This document shows, one piece after another, positions 1-52,687 of a stretch of DNA of 64,000 nt. The stretch is taken from positions 14,103 through 78,102 of the forward strand of contig JBEGVS010000005.1 in assembly GCA_041178185.1 (NCBI GenBank), read 5' to 3'. The number at the start of each line of letters is the position of its first letter. Position 1 is the stretch's first letter. This DNA is from Pseudomonadota bacterium. Its GTDB lineage: Bacteria; Bdellovibrionota_C; UBA2361; OMII01. Below the pieces are notes generated by a model. The model did not search any database, had not been told where the DNA came from, and saw nothing but the letters and a program-made list of their open reading frames with translations. The position numbers and the translations under genes were made by a program.

Positions 1-480
1 TCCACGAACCTCCTCAAGCTGATGCTCCAACTCAGTTACCCGTCTTTGACTCGCCTCGAGCTCTCGTTTCAAGGCTGGGTTTGGATTCGGCGCTACCGCA
101 GGGGCTGCGGGAGCTGGAACGCTCTCGTGTCGCTCAGGGCGAGATTGCTGCGCCACACCTTTTGCTACAACTTCTTCAACGACGGGACGGTTTACCGCCC
201 CATTGACCTGCTCTTGTTTGATAATCGGCGCCTGATACGTGGCCGGCTTTAACTGCGCTTCCTGTGCCGAGGCTCCCGTGCTCTCGGGCTCAAATGCGCT
301 CTGACCCTTGGCGGAAAGTCCCTCCAAAAGCGCTCTCTCAGCGGCGACAAGTGCTGCGTCCTCTGAACTCTCACCGGACTGGGCATGAACGGCCCCGGCC
401 GTAACGAACGTTACCGCTACGAGAATCGCCAAACTATGCAGTACAACCGATGATGTTTTGGATCTGTGCGTTCGGAGCAT
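1..480 (-). CDS. partial CDS (N-terminal 160 codons; 3' end lies beyond window start): Sec-signal-peptide secreted protein, possibly a further periplasmic Tra/T4SS component
   Basis: Minus-strand ATG at 480-478 translates MLRTHRSKTSSVVLHSLAILVAVTFVTAGAVHAQSGESSED... and stays open in frame to position 1. Hydrophobic h-region followed by AxA-like cleavage site, then an Ala/Pro/Glu-rich region. Co-directional and immediately downstream of the tra gene string. Absent from the ORF track because it runs off the window. Confidence 0.4.
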   Translation of the reverse strand, partial: MLRTHRSKTSSVVLHSLAILVAVTFVTAGAVHAQSGESSEDAALVAAERALLEGLSAKGQSAFEPESTGASAQEAQLKPATYQAPIIKQEQVNGAVNRPVVEEVVAKGVAQQSRPERHESVPAPAAPAVAPNPNPALKRELEASQRRVTELEHQLEEVRG

Positions 481-609
481 AAGGAAAAACCACCTAACCG
501 AGAGGCTAACAAACCGCCTACCCCCGTTATGCACACCTATCCTGTGATGTGACCTGTTCGCTTCAGATTTTTTTTGAAGAACTCTAGGGGATTTTCCTAG
601 ACCGTGCCC

Positions 610-1038
610 CTACTCAAGCCCGAGTGAGCGCTTGATATCATTGAGCTTTTCAGGCTGTGCGGGGGCTTCTTTATCGGAGCCGCGGAAGACCTCCTGCCCG
701 GAATCTGAATCCTGCCCCCCCTGAAGGAGCTTCTCAACGGTCACATCCCCCGCTGCCGCCCCATCAGAGCGGGCCCCATCGGAGCGGGCCCCATCGGAGC
801 GGGCCTTAGTGCGACGGCGTGCCGCAAGGTACGAGTCGACATCGTCGCTTGCCATGGTGCTCTTCGCCGATACCTGACCGTATCCACGATCAAGCGAGGC
901 CTCGCGACTATCCTCTGTCGAGTGAGCGGAACCGGCTAACCGTAGAACCGCCACGAGCGCAGCGATGGCGAAGATCCCCACGATCTGAACCTTGCTACGG
1001 AGGGGAGCCACAAAGTTGGCGCCGCTTATGAGGCTCAT
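610..1038 (-). CDS. hypothetical small membrane protein (one TM helix) containing an ARSDG x3 tandem repeat
   Basis: ORF 610..1080. Internal ATG at 1038 (MSLISGANFVAPLRSKVQIVGIFAIAALVAVLRLAGS...) avoids overlap with the upstream lipoprotein gene. One hydrophobic helix. The 15-bp x3 DNA repeat at 761-805 encodes ARSDGARSDGARSDG. Co-oriented with the tra genes. Confidence 0.35.
   Translation of the reverse strand: MSLISGANFVAPLRSKVQIVGIFAIAALVAVLRLAGSAHSTEDSREASLDRGYGQVSAKSTMASDDVDSYLAARRRTKARSDGARSDGARSDGAAAGDVTVEKLLQGGQDSDSGQEVFRGSDKEAPAQPEKLNDIKRSLGLE
761..805. repeat. perfect/near-perfect 15-bp tandem repeat x3 (ccatc[a/g]gagcgggcc), in frame inside the CDS 610..1038
   Basis: Read directly: ccatcagagcgggcc / ccatcggagcgggcc / ccatcggagcgggcc at 761-775, 776-790 and 791-805. 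Confidence 0.75.
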
Positions 1039-1049
1039 GCATTCACCTA

Positions 1050-1340
1050 CTATCGAGACGGTTTGCGATAATACTGCCATCGACCCTGACGGATCTCAAC
1101 CACTTCGGAGTGAGCTGGTCGATAGTACACACCCTCTGGATCGAGTCCAGGTGGCACCTCTACTACATCAACCATCGGCTCCTCCCACGTGTACTCAACT
1201 ACACCGGGTACGTTGCGGACATTATACTCAATTACTGGTGGCACGACAGGTGCCGGCTCAGGGCGAGCGCACGCTGTTACCCCGGCGCTTACCAATATGG
1301 CGGCACTCAAACGAAGAGCGGTTGCCGTATACGATTTCAT
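1050..1340 (-). CDS. small lipoprotein (96 aa)
   Basis: N-terminus MKSYTATALRLSAAILVSAGVTAC has a signal peptide and a lipobox-like ...AGVTAC. Pro/Val-rich mature part. Sits between the traC-like gene and the downstream small ORFs on the same strand. Confidence 0.45.
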   Translation of the reverse strand: MKSYTATALRLSAAILVSAGVTACARPEPAPVVPPVIEYNVRNVPGVVEYTWEEPMVDVVEVPPGLDPEGVYYRPAHSEVVEIRQGRWQYYRKPSR

Positions 1341-1352
1341 AACCCAATCCTC

Positions 1353-4094
1353 CTACATTCCTGAATCTTTAAATCCTACATCCATCATAGCGTTCACTGC
1401 GCCCGCCACACTTCCGCCATCCAACTCCTCGGCTGAGAAGTTACCCATGAGGCGTTGCTGAAGGTCCTTGGCTCCGTACGGAGCGACGTTCACAACCTCC
1501 TCCAGAGCTCTACTGAAGTCACCATCGTGGCGAGTAAGAACGTCTTGGAAAAGCTGGTTGTCATCACCGTTGTTTGTGCTCACCCAGTAGAAAGCCGGTT
1601 CAACTGGTAGCACAAGCGCCCCTTCGCCGATGTCCGAGAGCAGGTAGAATTGCGACTCTACACCCTTGACCGTTCGAAGGCGCATAATGACATCCGCTTG
1701 TTGCGGTGTGAGGTTAAACGCCTCGGCAGTGAGGTGGAACTTATTCGGATCTTGCCGCAAGAAGATCTTATGGGCGCTGTTTTGCACGATCGCTTGACCG
1801 CCAGACCCAACATAGAAGTCCTCTCCCGACTGTGATGCAGCGATAACGATACCTTTACGTTTACGGTAGAGACGGAAGGCCGTCTCGATCGTATTTGATG
1901 CGGTCTTGCCGATAAGTTCATGAGCCTCATCGAACACGAGCACCTTTCGGGTATCGATCTCAGAGGGATCGTTCATGACCGTATCCGCCCATACCATCGC
2001 GATCTTGAGGAATACGCGCTGAAGGTCGGGGTTACGTGAAAGCGCCTTCAGATCGAATACGATCAGACGTTCTTTGAGTTTCAGAGAGCCGGGACGGTCG
2101 AAGAACCGCGCATAGGTTCCCTCACCGTAGTAATCAGCGATGAGAAGGCTGATACGTTGGCGACGACGAGCACTGTCCTCGGTTTCATCAACCCGTCTTG
2201 GAGCGCGCAACACAGAGACAACATCGCTCAAGATGAATTCGCGACGCATCGGACCACTCCGATAGATTCGATGCGCTTCAACGAGTGACTCGACGACACT
2301 TCCACGCTCCAACCTATCCGGGAGGTGCTGACCATCTGCCGCCATGTCGCAGATTACGTCGGCGCACATATCGATCAGGTCCTTGTAGTCATCGTTCTGT
2401 CGCTCAGCCGCGAGCGCACCGAGCCGTGCAAGGAAGTTCATCGCCGGAGCGCGAGACGGGGTAGCCTCATACACCTTTCCGCCGAAGAGTCTGGCAACCT
2501 TTTCGAATCCACAAGGTTGTCCGGTCATACCCTTGTCGAAGATGAAGGTAATCGGCTGCCGCTCAACCACCCGTCCATCCGACAGGGTTGAGTAGTGACC
2601 ACGATTCAACATCGTGATCAGGTAACACATGAGGTAGCTCTTACCGGCTCCCGATACACCGCTTATGAGAACGTTCGGGGCTATGTTCGAGTCGTAAAAA
2701 TCGAAACCAACGAGCTCACGATTCCACAACGACGGGAGGATAAACTGAGCACCTGAACTGCCACGCCAGTTGCCCCACAACGGGAAGAGGCGAGTTGCTC
2801 GTGACGACTGCATTACGGTAGTCCATCCAGCACCATCAGTTGCCGGATCATACGCTCCCGGGAGGGAGTTGATCATCACAGCCATGTCCGAGATCTCATG
2901 CACCATCCCTCGAGCGCCGTTGAGTTGCGGGAATGTAGCGACCGCCTCAGAGGTCGCCCGAATAGCTTCATCTTCGGTCTGACAGATGAAGGTCTGGTGA
3001 ACGCCGACTCGAACGATCTGCTCCCGTGAGTTGTACAGCTCCTGTCGAGCGCTACGGATAGCCGAGATCTGGTGTATCACCTTCTGGTTTGAGCGTCCGC
3101 CCGGGGCCCGTTCACGCATACCAAGCAAAGAATCGAGCTTATCAAGACGCTCAAGCTGCTTTTCTTTTGGGTCCTTTGAGAACGTTACGCTCAGAATGTT
3201 TTCGTACGGCGTCGACTGAAGAGGAGCGATCATGAGCGGCATGCAGCTCTTAGGGGGCTTCACCATCGACACAGAGCGATACACGCGACCATCCTTCTTG
3301 ATGATTCCATCGGTTGGATGCTCGACGTGCGTTTCAGAGATCTGGTTCGCTAAAAGGTCGTCGCGATCGTATTCGGGAACGGGAATCGATGTTCCACGTC
3401 CGCGGCGGTGCTTGCCGGGCTTCACGCTTCGTCGATTGAGGAGGGGATAGAGGACGTTGATGAGCTTCTGTCCGTCGACCTTGCGGGGATAGAATCCGAG
3501 GTCGGCGAGCTTCGCCGCAGTTCCATCCATGATGCCCTTAAAACGATTTGCATACGTGAGATACTCAGCATGCCGTTGGTCCGCGCTCAATCCAACGGCA
3601 CCGTACATGAACATCTTCATCGCCCGAGCGACCTGTGCAGCCAAGCCCTTGCCCTCCCACGGAGGGTCAAATCGGAAGCTCACGAAGAGACGAAGTCTGC
3701 GTGGACGGCGATGTAGGGATCGTGATTGAGACGCCATGCGAATGGAACGCACCCAACGTTTAGTCATCCAGCCGGCGGCCCCATTTAAGGGATAGGAGTA
3801 GAGGCTGTTGCGAAGGAGGTCCTCGACGTCGAAGGTTGTAATCCAACTAAATTGGGCGGAGATGGTATGCTCGAAGGAGTCAAGCATCTCCTGAACGCGC
3901 TCAGTTAATTGAAAAGCCTCGGCATCCGATACGGTTGTAATCCACTTAGGTTGAAGCTCCCAGACCGACCAGAGCGAGGCGTCTGTGTGGATAAATATCT
4001 CGTTCTCCTCGTCGTATCGAGCAAAAGGCAGGAGCTTGTTGAAGAGCTCTTCATCCTGAAACAACCTTTTTCGAGTTAACCTATTTATGCTCAT
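1353..4094 (-). CDS. traC: type IV secretion ATPase, TraC (F-type VirB4 homologue), 913 aa
   Basis: ATG at 4094. Walker A in the context LFPLWGNWRGSSGAQFILPSLWNRELVGFDFYDSNIAPNVLISGVSGAGKSYLM closely parallels the F TraC region ...LMPLVADNPLTPAGLL...MAVCGTSGAGKT. Walker B-like VLVFDEAHEL follows. The size (~900 aa) and position after the TraV-like gene fit F-type order. Confidence 0.8.
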   Translation of the reverse strand: MSINRLTRKRLFQDEELFNKLLPFARYDEENEIFIHTDASLWSVWELQPKWITTVSDAEAFQLTERVQEMLDSFEHTISAQFSWITTFDVEDLLRNSLYSYPLNGAAGWMTKRWVRSIRMASQSRSLHRRPRRLRLFVSFRFDPPWEGKGLAAQVARAMKMFMYGAVGLSADQRHAEYLTYANRFKGIMDGTAAKLADLGFYPRKVDGQKLINVLYPLLNRRSVKPGKHRRGRGTSIPVPEYDRDDLLANQISETHVEHPTDGIIKKDGRVYRSVSMVKPPKSCMPLMIAPLQSTPYENILSVTFSKDPKEKQLERLDKLDSLLGMRERAPGGRSNQKVIHQISAIRSARQELYNSREQIVRVGVHQTFICQTEDEAIRATSEAVATFPQLNGARGMVHEISDMAVMINSLPGAYDPATDGAGWTTVMQSSRATRLFPLWGNWRGSSGAQFILPSLWNRELVGFDFYDSNIAPNVLISGVSGAGKSYLMCYLITMLNRGHYSTLSDGRVVERQPITFIFDKGMTGQPCGFEKVARLFGGKVYEATPSRAPAMNFLARLGALAAERQNDDYKDLIDMCADVICDMAADGQHLPDRLERGSVVESLVEAHRIYRSGPMRREFILSDVVSVLRAPRRVDETEDSARRRQRISLLIADYYGEGTYARFFDRPGSLKLKERLIVFDLKALSRNPDLQRVFLKIAMVWADTVMNDPSEIDTRKVLVFDEAHELIGKTASNTIETAFRLYRKRKGIVIAASQSGEDFYVGSGGQAIVQNSAHKIFLRQDPNKFHLTAEAFNLTPQQADVIMRLRTVKGVESQFYLLSDIGEGALVLPVEPAFYWVSTNNGDDNQLFQDVLTRHDGDFSRALEEVVNVAPYGAKDLQQRLMGNFSAEELDGGSVAGAVNAMMDVGFKDSGM

Positions 4095-4099
4095 GAAAC

Positions 4100-4603
4100 C
4101 TACTCACTAAATAAGGTCGGCTCCAACGCGGTTCGCACCAGACACCGGACCTCTTTGTTTTCGTGGTCAACAACGACCTTTATCTGCGCCTTCTCTTCTA
4201 TAATCCGCGAGAGCTCATCAAGTGTTCCAAGATTTTGAATAGAAAATTTCTGATCGGTGAGAGATGGGCTTGTATACGAGGAATACCTAGCCATAGAAGC
4301 CAGGAGCTTGCACGTCTGATCTATGTTCGCATTCTTGAGTGAAAGCTCATACACCGGACGAAGGGGGGGAGCATCATACGAGGAGTCCGTACCGTCACTA
4401 TCGCGGGACGGCAACACCTCGGGCGGATGCACCCAACGGGTTCGGGCGTACACCTGCTCCGGTCCTGCGGTCGTATACGAGGGCAGGAAGAGCGTTCGTC
4501 CCTTCTTCGTTGTTGGCTCATAGGGCTTCACATCACTTGTGGAGCATCCAACGGATACGCCACACAGAATGAGCCCTACGATTATCTTGGAGACCCTTAT
4601 CAC
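4100..4603 (-). CDS. lipoprotein (167 aa), T4SS-associated by position, function unknown
   Basis: MIRVSKIIVGLILCGVSVGCSTSD is a signal peptide with a lipobox (VGC). GTG start. Lies between the TraV-like gene and traC, and overlaps the upstream gene by 4 nt, consistent with operon coupling. Confidence 0.5.
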   Translation of the reverse strand: MIRVSKIIVGLILCGVSVGCSTSDVKPYEPTTKKGRTLFLPSYTTAGPEQVYARTRWVHPPEVLPSRDSDGTDSSYDAPPLRPVYELSLKNANIDQTCKLLASMARYSSYTSPSLTDQKFSIQNLGTLDELSRIIEEKAQIKVVVDHENKEVRCLVRTALEPTLFSE

Positions 4604-5049
4604 CGTATATCCTCCGGATTAACGAATCCTACCGCGGAAGCGTTCCCACCGGTAGTACTTCCGAGTTGAGCCTCTAACTCAAACGCGTCCTGAAGTGCCC
4701 ACGACTCCTTCTTAACCTTGAGGTAGTAGTAGTGCGCTGGAACGAGGTCTCCATGGGCATTGAGGTGATCGGGAACCCACATGAGGCGAACCACGGCCGG
4801 CTGCATAACAGGATTATTCGGTTGAGGGGAGAGCGCTCGTTGGTAGGTCCCCATGGACTCAAGCGCAGCCCGGGCCTTTTCCCCCTTACCACCACCGCTT
4901 CCCTCGTTGAGAGCCGCGTCGTTCTTCTCCCCGAAATACGCCACCTCGGAGGGGGTTTCATAGAACGGATTGAGCACATGCGTCATGCTGGAGCATCCCG
5001 TGAGGAGCACCCCAAGTACCGGAATTATTGCGAGTCGTACACCTTTCAT
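4600..5049 (-). CDS. outer-membrane lipoprotein, TraV-like (F-type T4SS core lipoprotein)
   Basis: Internal ATG at 5049 gives MKGVRLAIIPVLGVLLTGCSS, with an LTGC lipobox. The C-terminal motif AVVRLMWVPDHLNAHGDLVPAHYYYLKVKKESW resembles the conserved TraV C-terminal region as I recall it (ALWIAPWVDNQGDLH..VYFVI). Its position immediately after the traB-like gene matches the F order. Confidence 0.45.
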   Translation of the reverse strand: MKGVRLAIIPVLGVLLTGCSSMTHVLNPFYETPSEVAYFGEKNDAALNEGSGGGKGEKARAALESMGTYQRALSPQPNNPVMQPAVVRLMWVPDHLNAHGDLVPAHYYYLKVKKESWALQDAFELEAQLGSTTGGNASAVGFVNPEDIR

Positions 5050-5068
5050 AACACTCACCTCGTCACCT

Positions 5069-6235
5069 TTAATCCAAAGACGTAAACACAACCGCTGGAT
5101 CCTCATCGTCGAGCTGCTCAAGGAGCTCTGGGATAGCCAATGATTGCGAGAATACAGCCGTCGCCTCACGTCCCGAGAGCACTTGCACTACGGGAACGAG
5201 TTGCGAGAGTCGGTCGCGAATAATCTGTTGCCATTCGGTCGCAGCCGAAGAGAGGGCGACACCACCAGCGTAGGCCGGAACGTCTCCAGAGTTTACGCTA
5301 CTCTGAGTATTTCCGTTCGCGTACACTCGGTTTTGCACGTTTGCAGCGGCGATACCTTGACCGAGACCCGCGAGACCTCCGGCCATACCAGCTCCAACGA
5401 TCGCCTTGCCGATCGGATCGATCAGAACACCCTCCATTCCTCGAATACCGTCCTCACCCACGATCCAACCATCGATCGGAAACTCCTTTCGCTTACCGTT
5501 TGGGAGTCGTAAAGAGAGTCGGGTAAGTCGGAAAAGCACCCGAGCGTCAGTCAAAGACCCCTGAGCAGCGGCGATAATACGAGCTTCTCCGAGGGGTACG
5601 CTGTTTCCATCCGGTCCCATAACGTCGCTGACCAGCTTCAGAACTACAGGATAGGGGGTTCCATCCGTCGGTGCGTTCACACCCGCAAGGAGTTTGACGC
5701 GCACAGAATCTCCAGGCATCAAAGCCGCAAGCTTAGGCTTAACTGGGAGTGCTGGTGGCGCGGCGCCCACATCTGGAGCTGCAAGGCTCTCAAGTTCATC
5801 CGGTTGAGCACCGACGAGGTCTGGAGCTGTAATCTCACCGATGCTCTGGGGGTTTCCCGCAGCGGCTGGTTGTGTGCCGGAGTTACTCTGAACCTCGGCG
5901 AGACGCTCAAGGATCTTCTTGAAGATCTCTGCGGTAGTCGCCTCGTACTCCTGCATGGCTTTCTTTTGCGTATCGAGGTCTTCGCGAAGCGCTGCGCTCT
6001 GCGTGGTCAATTGATTGAGCTGCCCATTGAATCGTTCGATCAGGTCGGTCCAACGTTCGTTTGGATCGTTATGCGAAGCGACAGCGTCAGCTTTAGGCTT
6101 CTGTTTAAGCCCACGACGGGGAGCTTGTGGCGCCAGGGCAAGGTACATCACACACCCGATCACCACGATGAAGATGATTTGAGTCTTCCTATCGCTCCGA
6201 AGCCGAAGTGGCAGGTCTCGAAGAAACTGTTTCAT
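5069..6235 (-). CDS. traB: TraB / VirB10-family T4SS inner-to-outer membrane spanning protein (388 aa)
   Basis: ATG at 6235 with an upstream AGAGGTAGAG RBS. N-terminal TM helix (IIFIVVIGCVMYLALA), then a coiled-coil (QLNQLTTQSAALREDLDTQKKAMQEYEA), a Pro/Ala-rich linker, and a C-terminal Gly-rich beta domain. This architecture is typical of VirB10/TraB/TrbI. Confidence 0.6.
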   Translation of the reverse strand: MKQFLRDLPLRLRSDRKTQIIFIVVIGCVMYLALAPQAPRRGLKQKPKADAVASHNDPNERWTDLIERFNGQLNQLTTQSAALREDLDTQKKAMQEYEATTAEIFKKILERLAEVQSNSGTQPAAAGNPQSIGEITAPDLVGAQPDELESLAAPDVGAAPPALPVKPKLAALMPGDSVRVKLLAGVNAPTDGTPYPVVLKLVSDVMGPDGNSVPLGEARIIAAAQGSLTDARVLFRLTRLSLRLPNGKRKEFPIDGWIVGEDGIRGMEGVLIDPIGKAIVGAGMAGGLAGLGQGIAAANVQNRVYANGNTQSSVNSGDVPAYAGGVALSSAATEWQQIIRDRLSQLVPVVQVLSGREATAVFSQSLAIPELLEQLDDEDPAVVFTSLD

Positions 6236-6246
6236 ATCTCTACCTC

Positions 6247-7062
6247 TTACCGTGCCCGCGTTACGATATAGACCTTTGCGCTATTTTTACCTGAGAGCTG
6301 GTCCTCGACGTTCATGGGACGAGGGGCTAGTTCCCAGGTCGACGCCGAGATAGCTCGCGTTCCATCAAGACGGAACGTTGCCGCATTTAATTTCTGTGTC
6401 TGGTCGAGAAGATTGGTCGTATCGAGTACGTATCCCCACAGGTTTGGCCCAACAAGGATCTTATCGATCTTCGCAAGAATGGCTCCATCGCTAACGACGG
6501 TCTGTCCCTTATGGCGCTCACTGATGGTATAGCCGGGAATCGCGCTCTTGCCGAACTCAGCTACGAGAACCATCTCACGCATAAGACCAGACACCTTACT
6601 TGGAGGAGCATAGTCGTAGGAGCGTTCCTTAAATGGAGCAACCTCCTCCTCATCAGCTCCGACGACGCTCTTGCCATCAGATACCGTGACCTGCGCATCT
6701 CTCGGATTGTCCGAATTGGCGCGACGAATACGGAGCGGGTACGAACGACCGTTATCGAGACGGACGAGGATGGCCTCACCGTTCTCGTTCAGACTCTGGT
6801 TCCCAAAAACCACGAGCGAGGAGTCCTTCTTATCGAGGGAGATTCCGGCGTTGGAGTTCTTAAATCCGTCCTTTATCTTGCCCCCTTCAAAGATGATCTC
6901 GGTTGGCTCGCCAACATTGACGAAAACCTCGACCTCTCCTCTTCCGGTGGTGTACTCAACATCACGCGCAAAAGCGTTTGTGAGAGCTGAGAGCGCCACC
7001 AAAACAGCGAGCGTCACTCGTGTGGTTGCGTTATGAATGCGTACTGCCTGCTTCATCGTCAT
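6247..7062 (-). CDS. traK: TraK-like (VirB9/secretin-N-like) periplasmic T4SS core protein, 271 aa
   Basis: ATG at 7062 with an AAGGAG RBS. Signal peptide (VTLAVLVALSALTNAFA). The position between the traE-like and traB-like genes matches F-type order. Confidence 0.5.
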   Translation of the reverse strand: MTMKQAVRIHNATTRVTLAVLVALSALTNAFARDVEYTTGRGEVEVFVNVGEPTEIIFEGGKIKDGFKNSNAGISLDKKDSSLVVFGNQSLNENGEAILVRLDNGRSYPLRIRRANSDNPRDAQVTVSDGKSVVGADEEEVAPFKERSYDYAPPSKVSGLMREMVLVAEFGKSAIPGYTISERHKGQTVVSDGAILAKIDKILVGPNLWGYVLDTTNLLDQTQKLNAATFRLDGTRAISASTWELAPRPMNVEDQLSGKNSAKVYIVTRAR

Positions 7063-7067
7063 ACTCC

Positions 7068-7763
7068 TTATGAATTCACTCCAGTTGTCGGGGGCTCGCC
7101 CTCGATATTCGATTTAAACGATACGCCGGTAATCACGATTCCGTACGGATTCAGTGGATTACGAGGTATCGTTGACATGGTAATCGTAAATCTACTCGTA
7201 ACGGTCGGAAGGGAGCTCCCTGCAATAACCTTCCAGCGCTCACCAACGAGCGAGACCGTAACCTCATTTCCATTTCGAGCTACCTTCGTTCGAAGTGGAT
7301 CAGTAAAGAATACCTGGGTCCGGCCCGTGCTTTCAATCGCTCCAAGCTCTGCTCCCATCATCTCTTCCTTGAATTTCGTGTATACAGGCTCCTTTAGCAT
7401 GGAGGCTGCGACCGTGAATTGGTTGCGGGCGGTTCCTGGCTGGTAGGTCGCTACGAGATTCACATAGGTATTCGCCGCGTTGATAAACTCGGTGTCAGGG
7501 ATATCCTGAGCAACGTGAATTCCGGGCTCTGGCTTGGAGGGAACGGTGAGGTTAATCACCCGCGTTGACCACATGACAAGAGCGAATATCAGCGCCACGC
7601 AGGTCATTGGGAATTGAATCAACGACAACGAACGCCACAGGAGCGCTTGGTCTTTGTAGTTCTCCCACAGCCGTATCGTATCGCTCTCAGAACGAGTAGC
7701 GTTCAGCCGTGTGTCAGCTACAACCTCTCGAACATTCGGAGCAGCCATTCGTCCCTTTCTCAT
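7068..7763 (-). CDS. traE: TraE-like (VirB8-family) bitopic inner-membrane T4SS protein
   Basis: ORF 7068..7769 has a TTG at 7769; ATG alternatives are at 7763 and 7748. One TM helix (LIQFPMTCVALIFALVMW) followed by a ~170-aa periplasmic domain. Position right after the traL-like gene. Confidence 0.5.
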   Translation of the reverse strand: MRKGRMAAPNVREVVADTRLNATRSESDTIRLWENYKDQALLWRSLSLIQFPMTCVALIFALVMWSTRVINLTVPSKPEPGIHVAQDIPDTEFINAANTYVNLVATYQPGTARNQFTVAASMLKEPVYTKFKEEMMGAELGAIESTGRTQVFFTDPLRTKVARNGNEVTVSLVGERWKVIAGSSLPTVTSRFTITMSTIPRNPLNPYGIVITGVSFKSNIEGEPPTTGVNS

Positions 7764-7783
7764 ACACAACCTCTCACTTGACC

Positions 7784-8188
7784 TTACGTTCGACCGGGAC
7801 GACGTGCGTCCTGGCTCGGCCTATTTCTCAATTCTTCAAGCCCTAACTGAGCGTACAAGCAGCCGTCCCTAACTGCCTTTATCGGAGCTCCACTCCATAA
7901 CGGTTGAAGCTTCGAAGGGGTCGGGATGCCCGGCGGCTCAAAACCGCAGGTCACCATCACCAGGTTTCGAACGCCACGTTCCTCATCCGGAAATTTCTTC
8001 CGAAGAAACGCGAGCGCCAGGGTCGTTCCGATCCAGATCATGACCAGTATCGGCATCCACTGCGCTGGTTTGTCGACCATGTTCGCGGCGAGAAACGAAG
8101 CCATGAAGCCGGCCATCCACTCGAAGGGCTTTGCCCCCGCGAAGGTCCAATCCTCATTTAAGCCTGGTATTACGTCGCCGCTGTCCAT
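7784..8188 (-). CDS. traL: TraL-like (VirB3-like) small inner-membrane T4SS protein, 134 aa
   Basis: ATG at 8188. Two hydrophobic segments (WMAGFMASFLAANMV and ILVMIWIGTTLALAFL). It is the second gene of the operon and precedes the traE-like gene. Confidence 0.4.
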   Translation of the reverse strand: MDSGDVIPGLNEDWTFAGAKPFEWMAGFMASFLAANMVDKPAQWMPILVMIWIGTTLALAFLRKKFPDEERGVRNLVMVTCGFEPPGIPTPSKLQPLWSGAPIKAVRDGCLYAQLGLEELRNRPSQDARRPGRT

Positions 8189-8220
8189 CGTTACCTGCCT
8201 CTCCCTGTAATCATCAGTTC

Positions 8221-8664
8221 TTACCTAGTTGCTTCAGGTAAAAGTCGGGGATCGGCCTCGAACCGAATACCTCCCTTAGTTGCGCGTGGTTGCGGGTCGA
8301 GAACTCGGTCAAGGTCCTCTGCACGATCAATCAAGGTGTTACGCCATTGCGTAGTATCTAACAGTTCGGAAGGACTGGCGATCTTTCTGCCCTTATCGAA
8401 TTCATGGATGGCCGCAATTATCAGGGAGCGGGCGCGCGCAAAGTGAGCAACGGCCTCGGTTGTCTGCTCCGGCCCGGCTCTTCCAAGGGTAGTACGTTTA
8501 GCCATAGCCCGGTCGGAATGGTGATGGGAGCTAGCCTCTCCGGGAAGTCGAGGGGAATGCCCGCTTTGACCACCATCGTAGCTGCCACCACCACCATCGG
8601 CGTAACTCGTTGAGCTGACGAAGCTAAGGGCTAAAATCGATAGAAAAAGACAACGTTTAATCAT
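8221..8664 (-). CDS. secreted Gly/His-rich protein, first gene of the tra operon (function unknown; not pilin-like)
   Basis: ATG at 8664 gives MIKRCLFLSILALSFVSSTSYA|DGGGGSYDGGQSGHSP.. with a clear Sec signal. The mature part is hydrophilic and contains HHH. There is no second hydrophobic segment as in TraA propilin. Confidence 0.4.
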   Translation of the reverse strand: MIKRCLFLSILALSFVSSTSYADGGGGSYDGGQSGHSPRLPGEASSHHHSDRAMAKRTTLGRAGPEQTTEAVAHFARARSLIIAAIHEFDKGRKIASPSELLDTTQWRNTLIDRAEDLDRVLDPQPRATKGGIRFEADPRLLPEATR

Positions 8665-8676
8665 GGACACCACCAC

Positions 8677-9073
8677 ACTTAACCAACCGTTTAGGGACGT
8701 TATCTCCCCAGATATGCCTTACCGTATCGAAAGATAGGGGCAAACTGCTCCAGCTATTCTGTAAAATCACAAAAATACCGAAGTACTTATTGAGGGCTAT
8801 CCAGAGAATCCCCTAGGAATCCTCGGATACCTTCACTAGCGGTATGAAACGAACTGATGGAAACGTGTCCTAAGAAGTGTGCTTGGTTGCGGGCCTCTGA
8901 TTGTTCAGTGGCGATACAACCCCTTAGAGGCTCCCGAGGGAGGAAGCCGGTCGCCCCAGCGGCCTACGGTGCGTGGCTCGCGCTTTTCATCGCCTTGATC
9001 TTACCTGGGGAGGGTCCTACACTTTCCGCTGGTTCACAGGTATTCGGTTCGGGGCGGATTTTTTAGAGGTTTT
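8677..9073. promoter_or_regulatory. ~400-bp divergent intergenic region between the tra operon (minus strand) and the 682-aa membrane protein/T4CP operon (plus strand); presumed bidirectional promoter/regulatory region
   Basis: Lower GC than the flanking sequence, with an AT-rich core (ctattctgtaaaatcacaaaaataccgaagtacttattgag) containing a TGTAAAAT -10-like element. Short palindromes are present (gaatcccctaggaatcc). No ORF with coding character. Confidence 0.3.
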
Positions 9074-11122
9074 GTGGCTGTCGACGGACTCCCTAACTCA
9101 CATCAGGATGACCTCAGTTGGCTCAAGGCCGGAGGCAAGGGGTCTGGTGCCCGCTTTGCGGCGATGGTCGTTTTGTGGTTTGGCGCGCTCGTTCTCTCCG
9201 TCCTGCTGATCTTTTTTATTCTTCACCAACTCCACGGAAGCCTCGATACCGCTCAATCCATTCAGCATCACCTCCTCGAACGCCAAGAGCCGTGGTCGGA
9301 GAGGATGGCTCAAGACCTTGAGAGCTATCGAGGGTGGTTGGAGCGGTACGGCACCGGAGCTGAGCTCTCGGTATTCGATGACATTTCAGCAGTGCTCGCT
9401 CAGAGCGCTCTTGCGATGTCCACCTCACCAAGCGAATCGCTTCTCGCATCCCTGTACGTCTCCGCTCACTCAGGAATCGTTCGAGCGCTCTTTCTCATCA
9501 TCGCCTCATTTCGCCTCTGGGTCGCAACCCTTCTTATCGCCGCATACTGCGGACTCACCTCCTATCGTCCGTACAAGGGCGACGACATCCTTGGACAAAC
9601 GGGCAATGGTAGACTCTTTTACTCCGGTGCCCGAGGTGGACTTGAGAACCTTGCGCCGTCAGGAGCCCCAGACGTGCTAGTGCGTGGATTGGCATGTCCG
9701 GACTACGCCACAAAAACGGAGACCCACGCCTCGTCGATCTGGAAGACCTTGAGCGAGTGGGGGGCTACCAACGCAACCAACGAGGCCCTTGCCGCGATAC
9801 TGACTAAGCATGGCGACACGGCATCATACATCCCCCGTCTTGAGGACGAGGGCATCTATGATCAGTGCTTTAAGGGCGCTTCGCTCAAAGAGCATGTACC
9901 AAACCTCCTTCAGGTGGCGTTGGAGCTTCATTCCTCGTACGCGTCGGGGAACTCTACCGATCTACCGGAGGACGCTCTGCCCGTGGATTCCTTACACGGC
10001 GCAAACTCTGAAACGTACGCTCGGGCACTTCAAGGAGCACTGCATCAGGTTCTTTCACCACACCTACGCACGCTCATCGGCCAGCTCTCCGCTCAGGAGG
10101 TAGCGACCTTCGTGCTTGCCCTCGAGAGTGGCAAGATTATCGCGCACTCGTACGAGGCGGGGAAATGGTTTCGACGCTCAAATTTCCCCCACTTGAGCGC
10201 GCGAGCCATCCTGCACTCAGTAGTTGCGTACCCTCGCGAGTTCGATTTCTTCTCCCGTCAACGAATACGACAGGCGTTGGTGTACGCATCTCGCACAAGC
10301 TCCTTTGCGCCCGTACGGATGCCGATCGGAATGACTGATGACATTTGGGCCCTTCGACAGTGGGCGGAGGTCCTCCTCGCGTCACCCCATGAATTATCAG
10401 ATGCGGTGCATGAGATCGAATTAGTGGGGCTTGTCCGCGCAGCTCACACCCGTTTCGAGCGAGAGGTGCTACCGAAGGCGCTCTCGTTCGTTCCCGAACT
10501 CACCACAACAAGTTTTACAACCATGTCGGATCTCTTCTTCCTCCCACTTGAGAGCATCGTTACCCTTCTTGGAAGGACCGTAGAGCCGCACATCCTCGCT
10601 CGCATCGCTCACCTGAGCTCGATCGTTGGCGTGAAGCAAAAGCAGAGGATTGAACGGGCCCAGGCATCAGAGGAGGGGGCAGGAACAACGCTCATCTACG
10701 ATCGGGTGTTCGCGCCTATCACAGACGAAGAGGTGGCGCAGTTAGCTAGTCTGCACACACTTAATCCCGCAGAGATTCGCGAATGGTCCTCACTTCGCAA
10801 CATCTTGGCTTCCTTTGGATGGCTCGCCCGACGAGTCGGCGACTACACCGTTCCCGAGAGCTCGATTATCTTCAGCGTTTTCAAAACCCCAGCGAACTAT
10901 CCCGGCGCCAATACCCTTAACCTGATCGGGAAGAGCGGTTTAGTTCCACTGCGCGGGTCCAAGTTTCGTGAGGTGTTGGGTGGCGACTGGGATAGAAAGT
11001 TCCAGAACTTCCAACGGGCGACTATGTCAGAGAGTAGGGAGGATTTCGAAAGGGTACTCAAGGGAATAGCGCAGGAGGTTGTGGAGGAGCCGATAACAGC
11101 TCCCCCGGCTTCCGTTTCATAA
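9074..11122 (+). CDS. hypothetical 682-aa inner-membrane protein encoded immediately upstream of, and probably co-transcribed with, the T4CP
   Basis: GTG at 9074 with an agagg RBS 8 nt upstream; alternative ATG at 9164. Two predicted TM helices (MVVLWFGALVLSVLLIFFIL and ALFLIIASFRLWVATLLIAAY), then ~500 aa of soluble sequence in which I see no recognisable motif (no Walker A, no relaxase HxH/Tyr motifs). The stop at 11122 is 12 nt before the T4CP ATG. Confidence 0.6.
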   Translation: MAVDGLPNSHQDDLSWLKAGGKGSGARFAAMVVLWFGALVLSVLLIFFILHQLHGSLDTAQSIQHHLLERQEPWSERMAQDLESYRGWLERYGTGAELSVFDDISAVLAQSALAMSTSPSESLLASLYVSAHSGIVRALFLIIASFRLWVATLLIAAYCGLTSYRPYKGDDILGQTGNGRLFYSGARGGLENLAPSGAPDVLVRGLACPDYATKTETHASSIWKTLSEWGATNATNEALAAILTKHGDTASYIPRLEDEGIYDQCFKGASLKEHVPNLLQVALELHSSYASGNSTDLPEDALPVDSLHGANSETYARALQGALHQVLSPHLRTLIGQLSAQEVATFVLALESGKIIAHSYEAGKWFRRSNFPHLSARAILHSVVAYPREFDFFSRQRIRQALVYASRTSSFAPVRMPIGMTDDIWALRQWAEVLLASPHELSDAVHEIELVGLVRAAHTRFEREVLPKALSFVPELTTTSFTTMSDLFFLPLESIVTLLGRTVEPHILARIAHLSSIVGVKQKQRIERAQASEEGAGTTLIYDRVFAPITDEEVAQLASLHTLNPAEIREWSSLRNILASFGWLARRVGDYTVPESSIIFSVFKTPANYPGANTLNLIGKSGLVPLRGSKFREVLGGDWDRKFQNFQRATMSESREDFERVLKGIAQEVVEEPITAPPASVS

Positions 11123-11134
11123 CTAAAAGGTATC

Positions 11135-13300
11135 ATGGCTCGAAACTATAAACGCACCGACTACCAAGCGCTCCGTCGAGAGGAGCTTCGGCGCGCCCTT
11201 GTTTCAAGCGGATTGGTATCGGCAGGGGTATTCGGTGCGGCGCTCTCTCCACTCCTTGCCAACCTGCCTCCAGCAGGGCTCATGGGACTTGGATTTCTCC
11301 CCGCTGCCGTACTCGGATCTGCCGCCTACACCTTCGCCAAGCAGCACTCTATTGAGCGAGCTCGTAAGCAGGAGTCCATCTTACGAGGGGGTAGGGAGGT
11401 GTTGGGGATGCCACCGGAACGAGATTGCTTCGGCAAAGCCCTTGAGGATGCTCGTAAGTCCGGAAAGAAGGTCCTTGATCGCTACTTGGTCGGATTCGAG
11501 CTCGACTCAGGTAAACCGCTGTGGGTTGATGACGACGAGATCTGCACACACGCGGCGGTGTTCGCAAAAACCGGCGTCGGAAAGACGCTCTGGCTAGAGT
11601 CCCTCATCTTTCAACAGATGGCGCGGGGACGTGCGAGCGGATGCACCTTCATCGACGCGAAGAGAGATTCAGCGACCCTCGCTCACATCATCTTGATGGC
11701 GCTCATCACGGGACGGATCGAGGACCTCGTAATCGTAGACCCATTTGACAGCGTTCATGCATACAACTTCGTCATGACAAATCAACGAGCCGACGTTAAG
11801 GCTCGTAAGGTGCTGCGTGCGGGGCTGCCTCCGACCTCTGACCAGAGCACCACCAAGCACTACGATCGACTCGCAGCGGACTCCATATATCGAATGGTTC
11901 GAGCCATGGAGAGCTTTGGGCTCGCCTGGTCGATACGTGATATCGCAGTTGCACTTTCTGCCTTTCAGCTTGCATATCCCCATCTCCGAAACATGCTCAA
12001 CAAGATCGGGGCTCGTCAGGCGATGGTCGAGCTTGGACACCTGGCGTCGAGCTACCGCAGCGTCAAGGGAGTGCTCGATACCGCTCGCATCACCGACAAC
12101 CTCCGGGGTATCGCTTCAGAGCTCCACGCGATATCTGGTAGCCAAGCTGGAGAGGTGTTCTGCACCAAGCACACCGATCTCGTGCTCACCGATGCGATCG
12201 TACGAGGGAAGATTATTTACTATATGCTTCCGCGGTTGGAAGAAGCTGAGAGCGCTGCCCGCATGGTGAAGGTTTTCCGCGAGGACCTTGAGGTCTCGAT
12301 CGGCGAGATAACATCCTCGCGGATTCACAATCTTGAGGACCCTCATCTGGTGATCATCGACGAGGGTTCCTCTACCTTTGGTCCAACTTGGGCAAACCTC
12401 TTTGAGCTCGCGCGCCGTGGTCGCTTCGCGCTCCTCTTCGGTGCTCAGTCGACGGGCGGGCTCACCGATGCCGCGATGGGGCTTAGCGAGGCGTTCTACG
12501 AGCGCGTCATGGCCAACGTTAATCTCAAGGTGATGATGCGAATCGGGGATAACCGAACCGCAGCTGACATGACCGAATGGTTTGGAAAGATCGCCTCCAC
12601 CAAGAAGTCTGTTGGAGCTGGCATCACCACCGGTATCCAAACGTCGCTACTCAAAGGATCCCTCGACCTGAATTCTCGCAGAACGGGTGGTGAATCTCAG
12701 TCGGTAAGCTACCAAGAAGCTGAAGAGGATCTCGTCAGCGCCGAGGAGCTCAAGCATGAGATGTCGGCGGAGAAGGGTTTGGCGTGGTTCGATCTCGGAA
12801 ATGGAAAGATCGTGAAAGGGCGCTCATTCTGGTTTAATGCCAACCTCCCGGAGACGTGGGAGGGGCGGGAGTTTATCGTTCATCCAGAGAAATTTGAGGT
12901 CGATGAGATCGGGCTCTCCGATTGGGTCGATGAGCAGATCCTCTCTCAGGAGCAGGACGAAACATCACAAAACTTCGCTCCTAAGGCGAAACCTGCGCCC
13001 GACCCTCAGGTGCCCCAACCGGACAAAAAAGGTACCGCTACCCAAAAGACTGTCACCGCTCCCGCCTCAGAACCCGTGCCTGATGGACCGTTCAGGCTCG
13101 GAGCGATCCCTAAGGGGGGAAGGCCGCGTGGCAGCGTTATGACCCTCAGCAGGCCAACCCCTCCACCTACAAAAGTGGTCGTAACGCAGGGCGCGCGCGT
13201 AGACCAGCGAGGAAAGGGGGGAGCAACGACCAATGAAAAGGGCCAACCGCCCGATAGCCCCAAAGGCCCGAAGACAGGTCCTTTCAAATTCAGAAAATAA
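11135..13300 (+). CDS. type IV coupling protein (TraD/VirD4/TraG-family ATPase), 721 aa, with a disordered Pro/Lys-rich C-terminal tail
   Basis: ATG at 11135 with an aaaagg RBS. Two N-terminal TM helices. Walker A AVFAKTGVGKT and Walker B HLVIIDEGSS. The last ~170 aa (QDETSQNFAPKAKPAPDPQVPQPDKKGTATQKT...PKGPKTGPFKFRK) are low-complexity. Confidence 0.8.
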   Translation: MARNYKRTDYQALRREELRRALVSSGLVSAGVFGAALSPLLANLPPAGLMGLGFLPAAVLGSAAYTFAKQHSIERARKQESILRGGREVLGMPPERDCFGKALEDARKSGKKVLDRYLVGFELDSGKPLWVDDDEICTHAAVFAKTGVGKTLWLESLIFQQMARGRASGCTFIDAKRDSATLAHIILMALITGRIEDLVIVDPFDSVHAYNFVMTNQRADVKARKVLRAGLPPTSDQSTTKHYDRLAADSIYRMVRAMESFGLAWSIRDIAVALSAFQLAYPHLRNMLNKIGARQAMVELGHLASSYRSVKGVLDTARITDNLRGIASELHAISGSQAGEVFCTKHTDLVLTDAIVRGKIIYYMLPRLEEAESAARMVKVFREDLEVSIGEITSSRIHNLEDPHLVIIDEGSSTFGPTWANLFELARRGRFALLFGAQSTGGLTDAAMGLSEAFYERVMANVNLKVMMRIGDNRTAADMTEWFGKIASTKKSVGAGITTGIQTSLLKGSLDLNSRRTGGESQSVSYQEAEEDLVSAEELKHEMSAEKGLAWFDLGNGKIVKGRSFWFNANLPETWEGREFIVHPEKFEVDEIGLSDWVDEQILSQEQDETSQNFAPKAKPAPDPQVPQPDKKGTATQKTVTAPASEPVPDGPFRLGAIPKGGRPRGSVMTLSRPTPPPTKVVVTQGARVDQRGKGGATTNEKGQPPDSPKGPKTGPFKFRK

Positions 13301-13650
13301 GGTGCCGAAACTACACGATTCCTTGAGCAAAAAGGTGTTATTGCAATTAGGTGGCCTTGGCGATAATCTGAAAGCCAGCTCGACTTTGGTAGCAAAGCGG
13401 GTCAATCGGCCTTCACTATCGTGAATCCGAGAAACTCGCAGAAGCTTTTCGGAAGCATCTCGAGCAGATCGAGCGATCGGAGTGCGACGCGGCGTATCAT
13501 CGACTGCGGACACGCTCGACCGCTCAGGGAAGAGTCATGTCGGATCGATCGGGAGCACAGGTCGATTGAATGTAACAAGGTACGGAGTAGGGCGCCATAT
13601 TCGAGGGGCGCGCACATCCCGAAAGGGTTTTAGAAGAGGTAAAGGTTTCT

Positions 13651-14130
13651 ATGTATCGCGGCGGTGTAACGTTCTCTATCAATAAATCCTTCGGACGCCT
13701 CCAACTCATTCCCGAAGCTCACGGCCTTCGTTTCTTCTACATTCCCATACTAGATGGCGTAGAATCACCAAACGCTCCAGGAAATCTCAACTTACTCCTT
13801 CCCATCGATGCAATAGGTGGACTGTGGGCAACAGCTCGCGCCTTCCTCTACGGCGTCGAATCGCTCGATGAAAACGTCATCCTTCAAAGCGGAGAGAGTG
13901 AGGGAGACTCAGATACTCTTATCAAGCTTTACCGTGACAAGCCTCGCGGACAGCAGGGACGCCTCAACGGTGAAGAGACCTGCTGGCTTCGTATCGTCAC
14001 CGGCCGCACCGAAGAGGAGCGTCGCCGAATTAAGCTTGGGCCCCGAGACCTGCTGTGCCTCGAGCTCGCCTGCAACTCGGTCATGATCCTCGCCGGTGAA
14101 GAGCGCACCCACCGACCTTCCCTCCAGTAG
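13651..14130 (+). CDS. hypothetical protein (159 aa)
   Basis: Lone ORF in the 1-kb gap between the T4CP and the convergent dehydrogenase gene. No motifs recognised; coding status uncertain. Confidence 0.25.
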   Translation: MYRGGVTFSINKSFGRLQLIPEAHGLRFFYIPILDGVESPNAPGNLNLLLPIDAIGGLWATARAFLYGVESLDENVILQSGESEGDSDTLIKLYRDKPRGQQGRLNGEETCWLRIVTGRTEEERRRIKLGPRDLLCLELACNSVMILAGEERTHRPSLQ

Positions 14131-16851: not shown

Positions 16852-17201
16852 AGTCCCCTCTCAGCACAGCGATGTTGTAGGTACGCAGTGATAGCGCCGC
16901 TTAGGGGGATATCATATGAGCTAGATCAAAGGACGAGAGCGGCGGATTTACTCGCACCCATCTCTCGGGAGACCCACCCCAGTATCGGTTAACACTCGTT
17001 GAGCATGCCGTTTATCTTCCGGGACCCTCGTGCGATGTCCCCTTGAACCGCATACTTAGCGAGACATTCCCGTCCTTGGGACCTTTCGCAAAGGTGTCCT
17101 CATTTTGCACTTAACTTTTCCACTAGACTGCCGAATACACTATGTGGAGCGCCCTGCTCTTCTCAGGGTTATCGATTTCGGATCACGATCGGCCGCTATT
17201 C

Positions 17202-23547: not shown

Positions 23548-24051
23548 CTACCGAGCAGGGGGGAGGGTAGATGCTATGTGTAGCACTGCGCCCGATTCTA
23601 CTCCGTATCGTTTCATGGTGCCGCTCGCAAATTCAAGCACATACATACTTGGCTTGCCTATCGTTCGGGGGAGCTCATTGAGCGGCGGAACGTCATGCAG
23701 AATACCCACAACCTTCATATCTTTACCCACAAAAACCATATCGAGGGGAATGTAGGTGTTCTTCATCCAAAATGAATTCTCCCGCTCCTGCGGAAAAACG
23801 AAGATCATTCCGGCATCTTGAGGGAGAGAGCGCCTATACATAAGCCCCATCGCACGCTCTCCATCGTTGGCGCATACCTCTAGACGAAACGGAGGGGTTT
23901 CAACACCAGCCATCGTTGTGAAATGTCCCTCGACCACTGGGAGTTTAGAGGTCGCAGAGCAGGCAGAAACAACAAACGAGACAACGCACCCCAGCAGGAT
24001 TAACGATCGGGATATACGGGCGAGAGTGCGGTACGCTAGTGGGAGCCGCAT
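23548..24051 (-). CDS. DUF192-family protein (exported)
   Basis: ATG at 24051 overlaps the ETF-alpha stop (TAATG). Signal/TM N-terminus. Core GLMYRRSLPQDAGMIFVFPQERENSFWMKNTYIPLDMVFVGKDMKVVGI matches the DUF192 (COG1430) pattern. Confidence 0.6.
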   Translation of the reverse strand: MRLPLAYRTLARISRSLILLGCVVSFVVSACSATSKLPVVEGHFTTMAGVETPPFRLEVCANDGERAMGLMYRRSLPQDAGMIFVFPQERENSFWMKNTYIPLDMVFVGKDMKVVGILHDVPPLNELPRTIGKPSMYVLEFASGTMKRYGVESGAVLHIASTLPPAR

Positions 24052-25037: not shown

Positions 25038-25049
25038 CGCGTCTATCCT

Positions 25050-39803: not shown

Positions 39804-40029
39804 AGTCTTCCTTGGGTGGCGGAGGGCCAGTGCGGCCACATGACTGGTATATCTCACCGCCATTTCATACGTGCGTACGGCAGTGTAATCGTGACCGGAG
39901 GAGCTGGCAAGTCGGGCTTACAGGGGGAAAATCCCTGCTAAACGGGGGCATACGGGAGATCTTTACGAAGCGCTTGGATGCGAGCATGGTCGATTGCCCG
40001 GTTCAGGCCATCTCCCGCGGAATCATCAA

Positions 40030-52607: not shown

Positions 52608-52687
52608 ATACGTTGCCAGCCTCTTGAGCGGATTGTATGGTAGCAGAACTCACGAGAGATACAAAAAGGTATAAACACTGGGTAATT

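Follow-up and report, generated by a model that had tools for sequence, protein, structure and literature searches.

At its beginning, a 64,000-nucleotide stretch of DNA (the window; contig JBEGVS010000005.1, positions 14,103 to 78,102) from a bacterium that GTDB places in Bdellovibrionota_C carries genes of a type IV secretion system (T4SS). As judged from the open reading frames (ORFs) and their translations, a tightly packed and uninterrupted string of T4SS genes runs on the minus strand from position 8676 to position 610, and an operon encoding the type IV coupling protein (T4CP) diverges from it. The module is truncated at window position 1, and its full extent was read from three relatives, L002 (TraC 95% identical) and L001 and L057 (both 96%). 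All large ORFs of the window and a subset of the smaller ones were scanned with protein-family profiles, which sets the scope of every window-wide negative result given below. The features of the locus are as follows (aa, amino acids).

1-480, minus strand: 5' part (160 codons) of the gene for an exported coiled-coil and SH3b protein; ATG at 480-478, signal peptide; continues past position 1
610-1038, minus strand: small single-pass membrane protein; low-complexity variable stretch (ARSDG three times), conserved C-terminus
1050-1340, minus strand: 96-aa lipoprotein; lipobox VTAC, strongly conserved C-terminal motif
1353-4094, minus strand: TraC-type VirB4 ATPase, 913 aa; Walker A GVSGAGKS, Walker B LVFDEAH
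4100-4603, minus strand: extra lipoprotein with a predicted C-terminal N0/STN-fold domain, resembling the folds of DotD and Xanthomonas VirB7
4600-5049, minus strand: TraV-like lipoprotein (VirB7 analogue), 149 aa; lipobox LTGC, PF09676
5069-6235, minus strand: TraB/VirB10-like protein; N-terminal transmembrane segment, coiled coil, Pro-rich linker, TrbI domain
6247-7062, minus strand: TraK/VirB9-like periplasmic protein; signal peptide, profile support mainly from orthologues
7068-7769, minus strand: TraE (VirB8-like), bitopic inner-membrane protein; PF05309, TIGR02761
7784-8188, minus strand: 134-aa membrane protein in the TraL/VirB3 position, placed by position and topology only
8221-8664 (alternative start to 8676, 151 aa), minus strand: exported 147-aa protein with a signal peptide, first gene of the operon
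8665-9073: divergent intergenic (promoter) region between both operons, from the gene coordinates
9074-11122, plus strand: 682-aa clade-restricted orphan; two N-terminal transmembrane helices, large cytoplasmic alpha/beta domain
11135-13300, plus strand: T4CP; two N-terminal transmembrane segments, Walker A KTGVGKT, Walker B VIIDEG, Pro/Lys-rich tail
13651-14130, plus strand: 159-aa cytoplasmic orphan, as conserved as IspG, with no family match

The gene arrangement agrees with a previous interpretation made from the letters of the DNA (the sequence-only reading), which had proposed a contiguous minus-strand string in F-plasmid order with a divergent T4CP operon; profile searches confirm it through TraE, TraK, TraB, TraV, TraC and the T4CP. 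TraE matches PF05309 (2e-6) and TIGR02761 (1.3e-4). TraB matches both the TrbI domain (PF03743, 1.6e-14) and the F-type TraB model PRK13729 (1.3e-13), its sole matches in the Protein Data Bank (PDB) are TraB proteins of F-like plasmids (F/pED208; 7spb and 7okn, 8e-10), and it also weakly matches TIGR03752, a model from the G class of mating-pair formation systems (MPF-G). The TraV copy of the window reaches PF09676 at the Pfam threshold (5e-4), and 14 of 16 orthologues match this family. The TraK copy of the window scores weakly (TraK_N, 0.088; TIGR02756, 0.014) and finds no match in a sequence-profile search against PDB sequences; among its 18 orthologues, TraK_C is matched by 11 (best 1.9e-6) and TraK_N by eight (best 3.2e-4). 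The same check did not bear out the proposed TraL: the Pfam TraL/VirB3 families are matched by none of 17 orthologues of the 134-aa protein at 7784-8188, which rules out its assignment by profile. This protein is conserved across all loci.

The ATPase is matched by PF11130 (5e-13), PF19044 (5.6e-10), TIGR02746 (4.6e-55) and also TIGR00929. The F-type model TIGR02746 gives 186.9 bits, compared with 106 for VirB4_CagE and 52.8 for the MPF-G TraC model, although the cut-off of TIGR02746 is 567 bits and the 187 bits obtained here fall well below it. Identity of TraC is at least 66% inside the clade and at most 30% outside it. Among 1.84 billion representatives of clusters at 50% identity the whole clade collapses to one full-length representative (71%, 1537 bits), with the next full-length relative 30% identical (220 bits) and others at 23-28%. 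The few outgroup sequences that carry a name at their source are called TraC or TraC family, and they include metagenome-assembled genomes (MAGs) of Planctomycetota, Ratteibacteria and Nitrospirota. In a collection of 72,556 plasmids the best 5000 matches were without exception traC or trhC, and none exceeded 26% identity. Around the top-scoring plasmid TraC (140 bits), on a Myxococcus plasmid, the annotated genes show no recognisable similarity to this locus. The protein is about 20% identical to F TraC and 16% to R64 TraU.

A rough neighbour-joining (NJ) tree of VirB4 proteins was built with references from F, IncC and IncHI (TraC), R388 (TrwK, MPF-T) and R64 (TraU, MPF-I), and so without MPF-G, MPF-B or MPF-C. 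The clade is monophyletic in 100% of bootstraps and, within this set of references, falls in the TraC-type radiation apart from TrwK and TraU in 87%. It joins the canonical F/IncC/IncHI group in 24%, and the canonical group has 95.5% support of its own without the clade. By sequence identity, TraC is an isolated deep branch.

Using one genome per species, we found TraC homologues of 67-96% identity in 59 species-level loci, nearly all of them in MAGs labelled Bdellovibrionota, Oligoflexia or 'Deltaproteobacteria' and mostly of lake or river origin; contigs of 100-540 kb carry many of these loci. A tblastn matrix shows a common gene order in all 59 loci, from the exported first gene through the pilin to ispG, a PRT-like gene and tgt, and the ispG-side flank is the same wherever the contig extends into it. 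The chromosomal location that had been proposed for the system is borne out.

IspG is an essential, single-copy gene, and it was used as a reference for the evolution of the block. Pairwise distances of TraC and IspG are correlated (Pearson 0.91, slope 0.85, intercept -0.03), with mean distances of 0.25 for TraC, 0.24 for the T4CP and 0.22 for the 159-aa orphan, compared with 0.22 for IspG, so that all three equal IspG in conservation. When an NJ tree of TraC is set against one built from IspG together with the PRT-like protein, eight of 13 internal splits agree and the Robinson-Foulds (RF) distance is 10; 1000 label permutations gave a mean RF of 25.6 and a minimum of 20. Relative to L002, TraC has a ratio of nonsynonymous to synonymous rates (dN/dS) of 0.017, the T4CP one of 0.022 and the 159-aa orphan one of 0.010; synonymous sites are near saturation even in this 95%-identical pair (proportion of synonymous differences about 0.67). 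The T4SS genes do not differ in composition from the rest of the window (GC 0.554 versus 0.559; GC at third codon positions, p = 0.14), and their relative synonymous codon usage correlates with that of the window at r = 0.94 (control 0.96), so that the comparison with flanking genes that the sequence-only reading had called for yields a host-like signature. The window has no tRNA gene, no att-like or flanking repeats were found around the block, and no relaxase, integrase or additional T4SS gene was found among the ORFs scanned; the absence of relaxase, integrase and att site noted earlier therefore holds. Extended to the syntenic flanks of the 59 loci, the search returned no relaxase, oriT-like feature or DNA-processing gene. 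The block is not on a mobile element and is vertically inherited under strong selection.

Exact-sequence look-ups of contigs with TraC and the 682-aa protein found no extension of this genome past position 1, and the look-up with the lipoprotein returned only short contigs ending in TraC. The extension past position 1 therefore rests on L001, L002 and L057. The product of window positions 480-1 aligns with a 330-aa protein of L002 that has a coiled coil and an SH3_3 domain (5e-9). The end of this SH3b gene in L002 overlaps the start of a gene for an M23 peptidase (1.3e-33), which carries a signal peptide and in which the HxxxD and HxH motifs are intact. The next gene, 291 bp past the M23 gene, is that of a pilin, whose 130-aa product matches TrbC/VirB2 (PF04956, 5.6e-4), has a long signal peptide and two hydrophobic helices, and is followed by a terminator-like hairpin. 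In the closest relatives the pilin gene is thus about 2.5-3 kb past position 1, beyond the SH3b and M23 genes. Of the 40 loci long enough to include this region, 34 were found to carry the gene with a hidden Markov model built from these pilins, L001 and L057 among them. By its profile match, the pilin is of the VirB2/TrbC type (PF04956) and not of the TraA type. The apparent lack of a propilin in the sequence-only reading was consequently an artefact of the window edge, and extension past position 1, which had been suggested as a way to look for traW/U/N/F/H/G and a relaxase, yielded the pilin instead and none of those genes in the L002 locus.

Past the pilin, L002 has a kinase-like gene on the opposite strand, followed by ispG, the PRT-like gene, a ZIP transporter gene and tgt. 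The module spans about 17 kb; at the pilin end it meets housekeeping genes (in L002), and at the end inside the window it meets chromosomal genes of an ordinary kind. Some variation was seen in this part of the locus. L033 has two tandem pilin genes (15965-16865). In the AT-rich relative L034 an additional ORF for a 174-aa membrane protein (13391-13915) lies between the genes for the small membrane protein and the SH3b protein, and the locus has no pilin gene. The kinase-like protein of L002 (15938-18187, minus strand; 749 aa) combines a weak kinase-like match at its N-terminus with a transmembrane segment in the middle and an extended helical region at its C-terminus. In many relatives its gene keeps this place opposite the pilin gene, but the sequence changes fast (22-78% identity).

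On the coupling side, the T4CP matches TraG-D_C (PF12696, 1.9e-5), SXT_TraD (TIGR03743, 6e-16) and IncI TrbC (NF041447, 3.9e-14). Its sole PDB match is Legionella DotL (6sz9, 9e-11), and BLASTP gives 1e-7 with R64 TrbC compared with 0.027 with R388 TrwB. The 682-aa protein encoded directly upstream has 131 homologues, which are all about 680 aa long, belong without exception to this clade and carry no Pfam domain; it is a fast-evolving protein (mean distance 0.60). Its AlphaFold2 model is confident (pLDDT 82.5), and from this model no structural homologue was detected, with no likeness to any DotM structure; the protein also shows no similarity to R64 TrbA, which we take to be a DotM homologue. 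We propose it as a partner of the T4CP. The 159-aa orphan has 64 invariant columns across 11 orthologues from 11 species and no match in Pfam, NCBIfam or PDB sequences. It adjoins the T4SS even where the T4CP operon is non-adjacent (L033, L046, L056) or has moved downstream (L034), and is a candidate adaptor, chaperone or regulator. Together, the T4CP and these two proteins may, as we propose, form a substrate-recruitment module.

In the envelope part, the extra lipoprotein that the sequence-only reading had noted between TraV and traC is indeed present and now has an identity. Behind the lipobox, its predicted structure shows a linker with little order and then a domain of about 70 aa at the C-terminus with pLDDT above 90, which is modelled as an N0 fold like those of Legionella DotD and Xanthomonas VirB7, a likeness at the level of the fold only. 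In sequence it has no similarity to R64 TraH, and a sequence-profile search found none among PDB sequences. N0-domain lipoproteins are accessory ring subunits of T4B and X-T4SS machines, and we know of no F system of which they form part. The protein is presumed to be an extra subunit of the outer-membrane complex.

Three further products of the minus-strand string have no assigned family. The first-gene product (8221-8664) is present in all loci and gave no family in profile searches; its translation has the signal peptide and Gly/His-rich N-terminus for which it had already been described as secreted and His/Gly-rich, followed by a helical-looking conserved C-terminus. Neither the 96-aa lipoprotein (1050-1340), which is 38-85% identical across loci, nor the small membrane protein (610-1038) has a family match in profile searches. 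The latter is weakly conserved, and its orthologue in L002 begins at an internal Met; its threefold tandem ARSDG repeat varies among close relatives. In the divergent intergenic region (8665-9073) a scan for promoter and terminator consensus sequences found no enrichment of consensus sigma-70 sites, and an Rfam search gave no family. A 22-nt inverted repeat, 91% complementary and with its arms 765 nt apart (8251-8272 and 9038-9059), brackets the first gene together with the divergent promoter region; it may be due to chance.

Considering the general components of a T4SS, the locus has a VirB4 ATPase with intact motifs, analogues of VirB7, VirB9 and VirB10, a VirB8-like protein and, in the relatives, a VirB2-type pilin. 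It shares with the MPF-F systems of F, pED208, IncC and IncHI the order (L)-E-K-B-V-(x)-C, the TraE, TraK, TraB and TraV families, a TraC-type VirB4 with the PF11130 N-terminal domain and the lack of VirB11, and the best matches of TraB and TraC are to the F family. MPF-F is defined by twelve profile families (PMC4027160), of which four are found here (TraB, TraK, TraV and TraE), one is represented by position (TraL) and seven are absent from the locus: TraW, TraU, TraF, TrbC, TraH, TraN and TraG were found neither between the housekeeping flanks (L002 and the window) nor among the scanned window ORFs. Compared with MPF-F, the locus also lacks a relaxase, has a VirB2/TrbC pilin instead of TraA, and has added the M23/SH3b pair and the N0 lipoprotein; its TraC falls outside the canonical F group in the rough NJ tree, which had no MPF-G, MPF-B or MPF-C references, and it is chromosomal and vertically inherited. 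The proposal of a non-standard F-like system is thus retained for its F-family core and, probably, for its not being a standard conjugation region, whereas membership of MPF-F proper is not supported.

The system differs from Dot/Icm and IncI (MPF-I) in that its VirB4 is of the TraC type and not of the DotO/TraU type; profile searches of the locus gave no DotC-, DotH-, DotG- or DotB-type match, and what is common to it and Dot/Icm is limited to the DotD-like fold and the DotL-like T4CP. Transfer of the genes to the Dot/Icm or VirB/T-type sets, the outcome that would have overturned the sequence-only reading, finds no support, since the VirB4 scores favour the TraC model and no Dot/Icm family is matched. 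The bacteria-killing X-T4SS of Xanthomonadales is MPF-T (VirB1-11), whereas the core here is TraE/K/B/V/C. MPF-G systems carry an N0-type lipoprotein, PilL. Those of ICEclc and ICEHin1056 have homologues of TraK, TraB, TraV, TraL and TraE and two VirB2-like pilins (PMC4027160), and the present locus has in common with them the TraK, TraB, TraV and TraE homologues (TraL by position), the pilin type and the weak match of TraB to TIGR03752. However, TraC scores 187 bits on the F model and 53 on the MPF-G model, and MPF-G keeps homologues of TraW, TraU, TraF and TraH and is found on mobile integrative and conjugative elements (ICEs).

Taken together, these results lead us to favour, with some reserve, a chromosomally fixed, vertically inherited and streamlined T4SS from the TraC (F-like) branch that has been co-opted as a core structure of mostly freshwater Bdellovibrionota. 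Given its vertical descent under strong selection and the lack of mobility, the system probably serves the cell itself, likely in contact-dependent secretion, rather than plasmid transfer. In the mechanism that we envisage, the Sec-exported M23/SH3b pair would open the cell wall in place of a VirB1 transglycosylase, and TraC would power the assembly of a VirB2-type pilus through a ring of TraV, TraK and TraB reinforced by the N0 lipoprotein. The T4CP and its orphan partner, possibly with the 159-aa protein as adaptor, would recruit cytoplasmic substrates to the channel, and proteins, in preference to DNA, would be delivered on contact into another cell, either a prey bacterium or a eukaryotic host. 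T4SSs that have a T4CP and no relaxase (MOB-less systems) are typically protein translocators (PMC4027160). In keeping with such systems, a T4CP is present here, no relaxase was found and inheritance is stable and chromosomal. The host phylum is known for predation and for attacking other cells, and this, added to the usual role of MOB-less, T4CP-containing systems in protein secretion, is why contact-dependent protein delivery is favoured. More tentatively, and with the odds somewhat against it, the locus may represent a previously undescribed class of T4SS, an early-domesticated machine of the F lineage whose minimal core was rebuilt with an N0 lipoprotein, an M23/SH3b pair, a VirB2 pilin and a novel T4CP partner for contact-dependent injection of prey or host.

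Several points weigh against this interpretation. No substrate, effector or target has been identified, so the translocation of proteins is a step that we infer, and all members of the lineage are MAGs. The T4CP operon is non-adjacent in five of the 13 loci with gene order examined (L031, L033, L046, L050 and L056), and the T4CP may therefore not be universal; the pilin is absent from the locus in six of 40 loci. Neither a VirB6-like polytopic inner-membrane protein nor a VirB5-like protein was found. The M23 peptidase and the pilin are read from relatives at 95-96% TraC identity and not from this genome. What was inspected is the 64-kb window plus flanks of about 10 kb, and other parts of these genomes could hold a relaxase or the F-type genes that the locus lacks. 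Finally, since IspG is physically linked to the block, co-divergence alone leaves room for an ancient co-transfer of the whole region.

The strongest alternative, although an unlikely one, is that this chromosomal T4SS handles DNA, either in conjugation or mobilisation with a relaxase provided in trans, or in DNA release or uptake as in the gonococcal genetic island (GGI) of Neisseria or ComB of Helicobacter. The ancestral role of T4CPs is the translocation of DNA, each core protein has conjugation proteins as its nearest labelled relatives, and a distant relaxase could lie beyond the window and the roughly 10 kb of flanks inspected. The GGI is F-like and chromosomal; it keeps the full F set with TraI/TraD, and ComB has no T4CP, so that neither matches the gene set here. 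The GGI machine is named among T4SSs as one that secretes DNA (PMC4027160). Systems with a T4CP and no relaxase typically secrete proteins (PMC4027160), and no relaxase, oriT-like feature or DNA-processing gene was found in the scanned window ORFs or the 59 syntenic flanks. Less probable still is an organelle for adhesion only, in which a VirB2-type pilus attaches to prey or surfaces and translocation is vestigial. The pilin would suit such a role, with a highly conserved core, a promoter-sized gap and a terminator of its own and a duplication in L033, and the block from TraL to TraC is retained in several sublineages that have no T4CP operon beside it. Against this, the T4CP, where present, is as conserved as IspG (0.24 versus 0.22), with a dN/dS of 0.022 and intact Walker motifs, and six loci keep the core without a nearby pilin.

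Most improbable is the remnant of an ICE or plasmid, either inserted recently and site-specifically beside ispG in many species or in decay. In its favour, the locus has the gene order and protein families of conjugative F-like systems, and chromosomal tra clusters are usually ICEs. However, the flanks are the same in 59 species, composition is host-like, TraC co-diverges with IspG in congruent trees with a dN/dS of about 0.02, the examined ORFs are intact, and identity to plasmid TraC sequences is 26% or less. As to the attributes of a conjugative element, no relaxase was found in the scanned window ORFs or the L002 flanks, no integrase among the scanned window ORFs and no att repeat or tRNA target, and neither a variable insertion context nor foreign composition was seen.

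If the favoured interpretation of a co-opted, vertically inherited system is correct, it would represent an independent domestication from the F/TraC branch in a phylum known for predation. On the more tentative reading as an injection apparatus of a new class, it would be, to our knowledge, the first vertically inherited effector translocator from the F branch. The anciently fixed non-conjugative T4SSs from other branches known to us are of the P/VirB type (Rickettsiales rvh, Bartonella, Brucella, Xanthomonadales) and the I type (Dot/Icm). Full-text literature searches on Bdellovibrionota and Oligoflexia returned no paper that describes a conserved T4SS there. An anciently fixed T4SS derived from MPF-FATA has recently been reported in Patescibacteria; it is phylogenetically distinct, chromosomal, mostly relaxase-less, lineage-wide and equipped with VirB2-like pilins, and on its authors' interpretation it was co-opted for living on other cells (PMC12102498). 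This system is the closest conceptual precedent, although it has monoderm MPF-FATA ancestry, as opposed to a diderm TraC/F lineage, has another envelope complex and belongs to another phylum. The minimal gene set would also imply that TraW, TraU, TraF, TraH, TraN and TraG are dispensable once mating ceases, and the conserved 682-aa and 159-aa orphans probably define a new module of substrate recruitment. The locus may in addition provide a molecular handle on the lifestyle of an abundant uncultured freshwater lineage.

Outside the T4SS block, the window contains the following genes.

14281-16851, minus strand: GSDH/PKD protein, 856 aa, with a glucose/sorbosone dehydrogenase (GSDH) domain and two PKD domains; adjoins the T4SS block
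24051-25799: electron transfer flavoprotein (ETF)
37899-39863: alanyl-tRNA synthetase
42695-43978: class-V aminotransferase
52637-53950: tyrosyl-tRNA synthetase

The sequence-only reading had the block run straight into tRNA synthetase and ETF genes, which needs correction. The next genes are those of the 159-aa orphan and the GSDH/PKD protein, followed by two glycosyltransferases and an FMN reductase; the supposed tRNA synthetase beside the block, at 14281-16851, is the GSDH/PKD protein, and the alanyl- and tyrosyl-tRNA synthetases begin at 37899 and 52637. These two, the ETF and the class-V aminotransferase lie 10-40 kb past the T4SS block.

Three further observations concern this part of the window. 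A Ski2/Hel308-like helicase appears split into two abutting ORFs on the minus strand (25996-27414 and 27414-28271), with a DEAD-box part of 285 aa and a DSHCT-containing part of 472 aa; a frameshift, an assembly error or a real split are possible. A second protein with a C-terminal bacterial SH3 domain (PF08239, 3.5e-7) is encoded at 40030-41358 on the minus strand and is unlinked to the T4SS. Finally, a full-length serpin (PF00079, 3e-85) is encoded at 45834-47021 on the minus strand; serpins are uncommon in bacteria and are sometimes linked with interactions between organisms.

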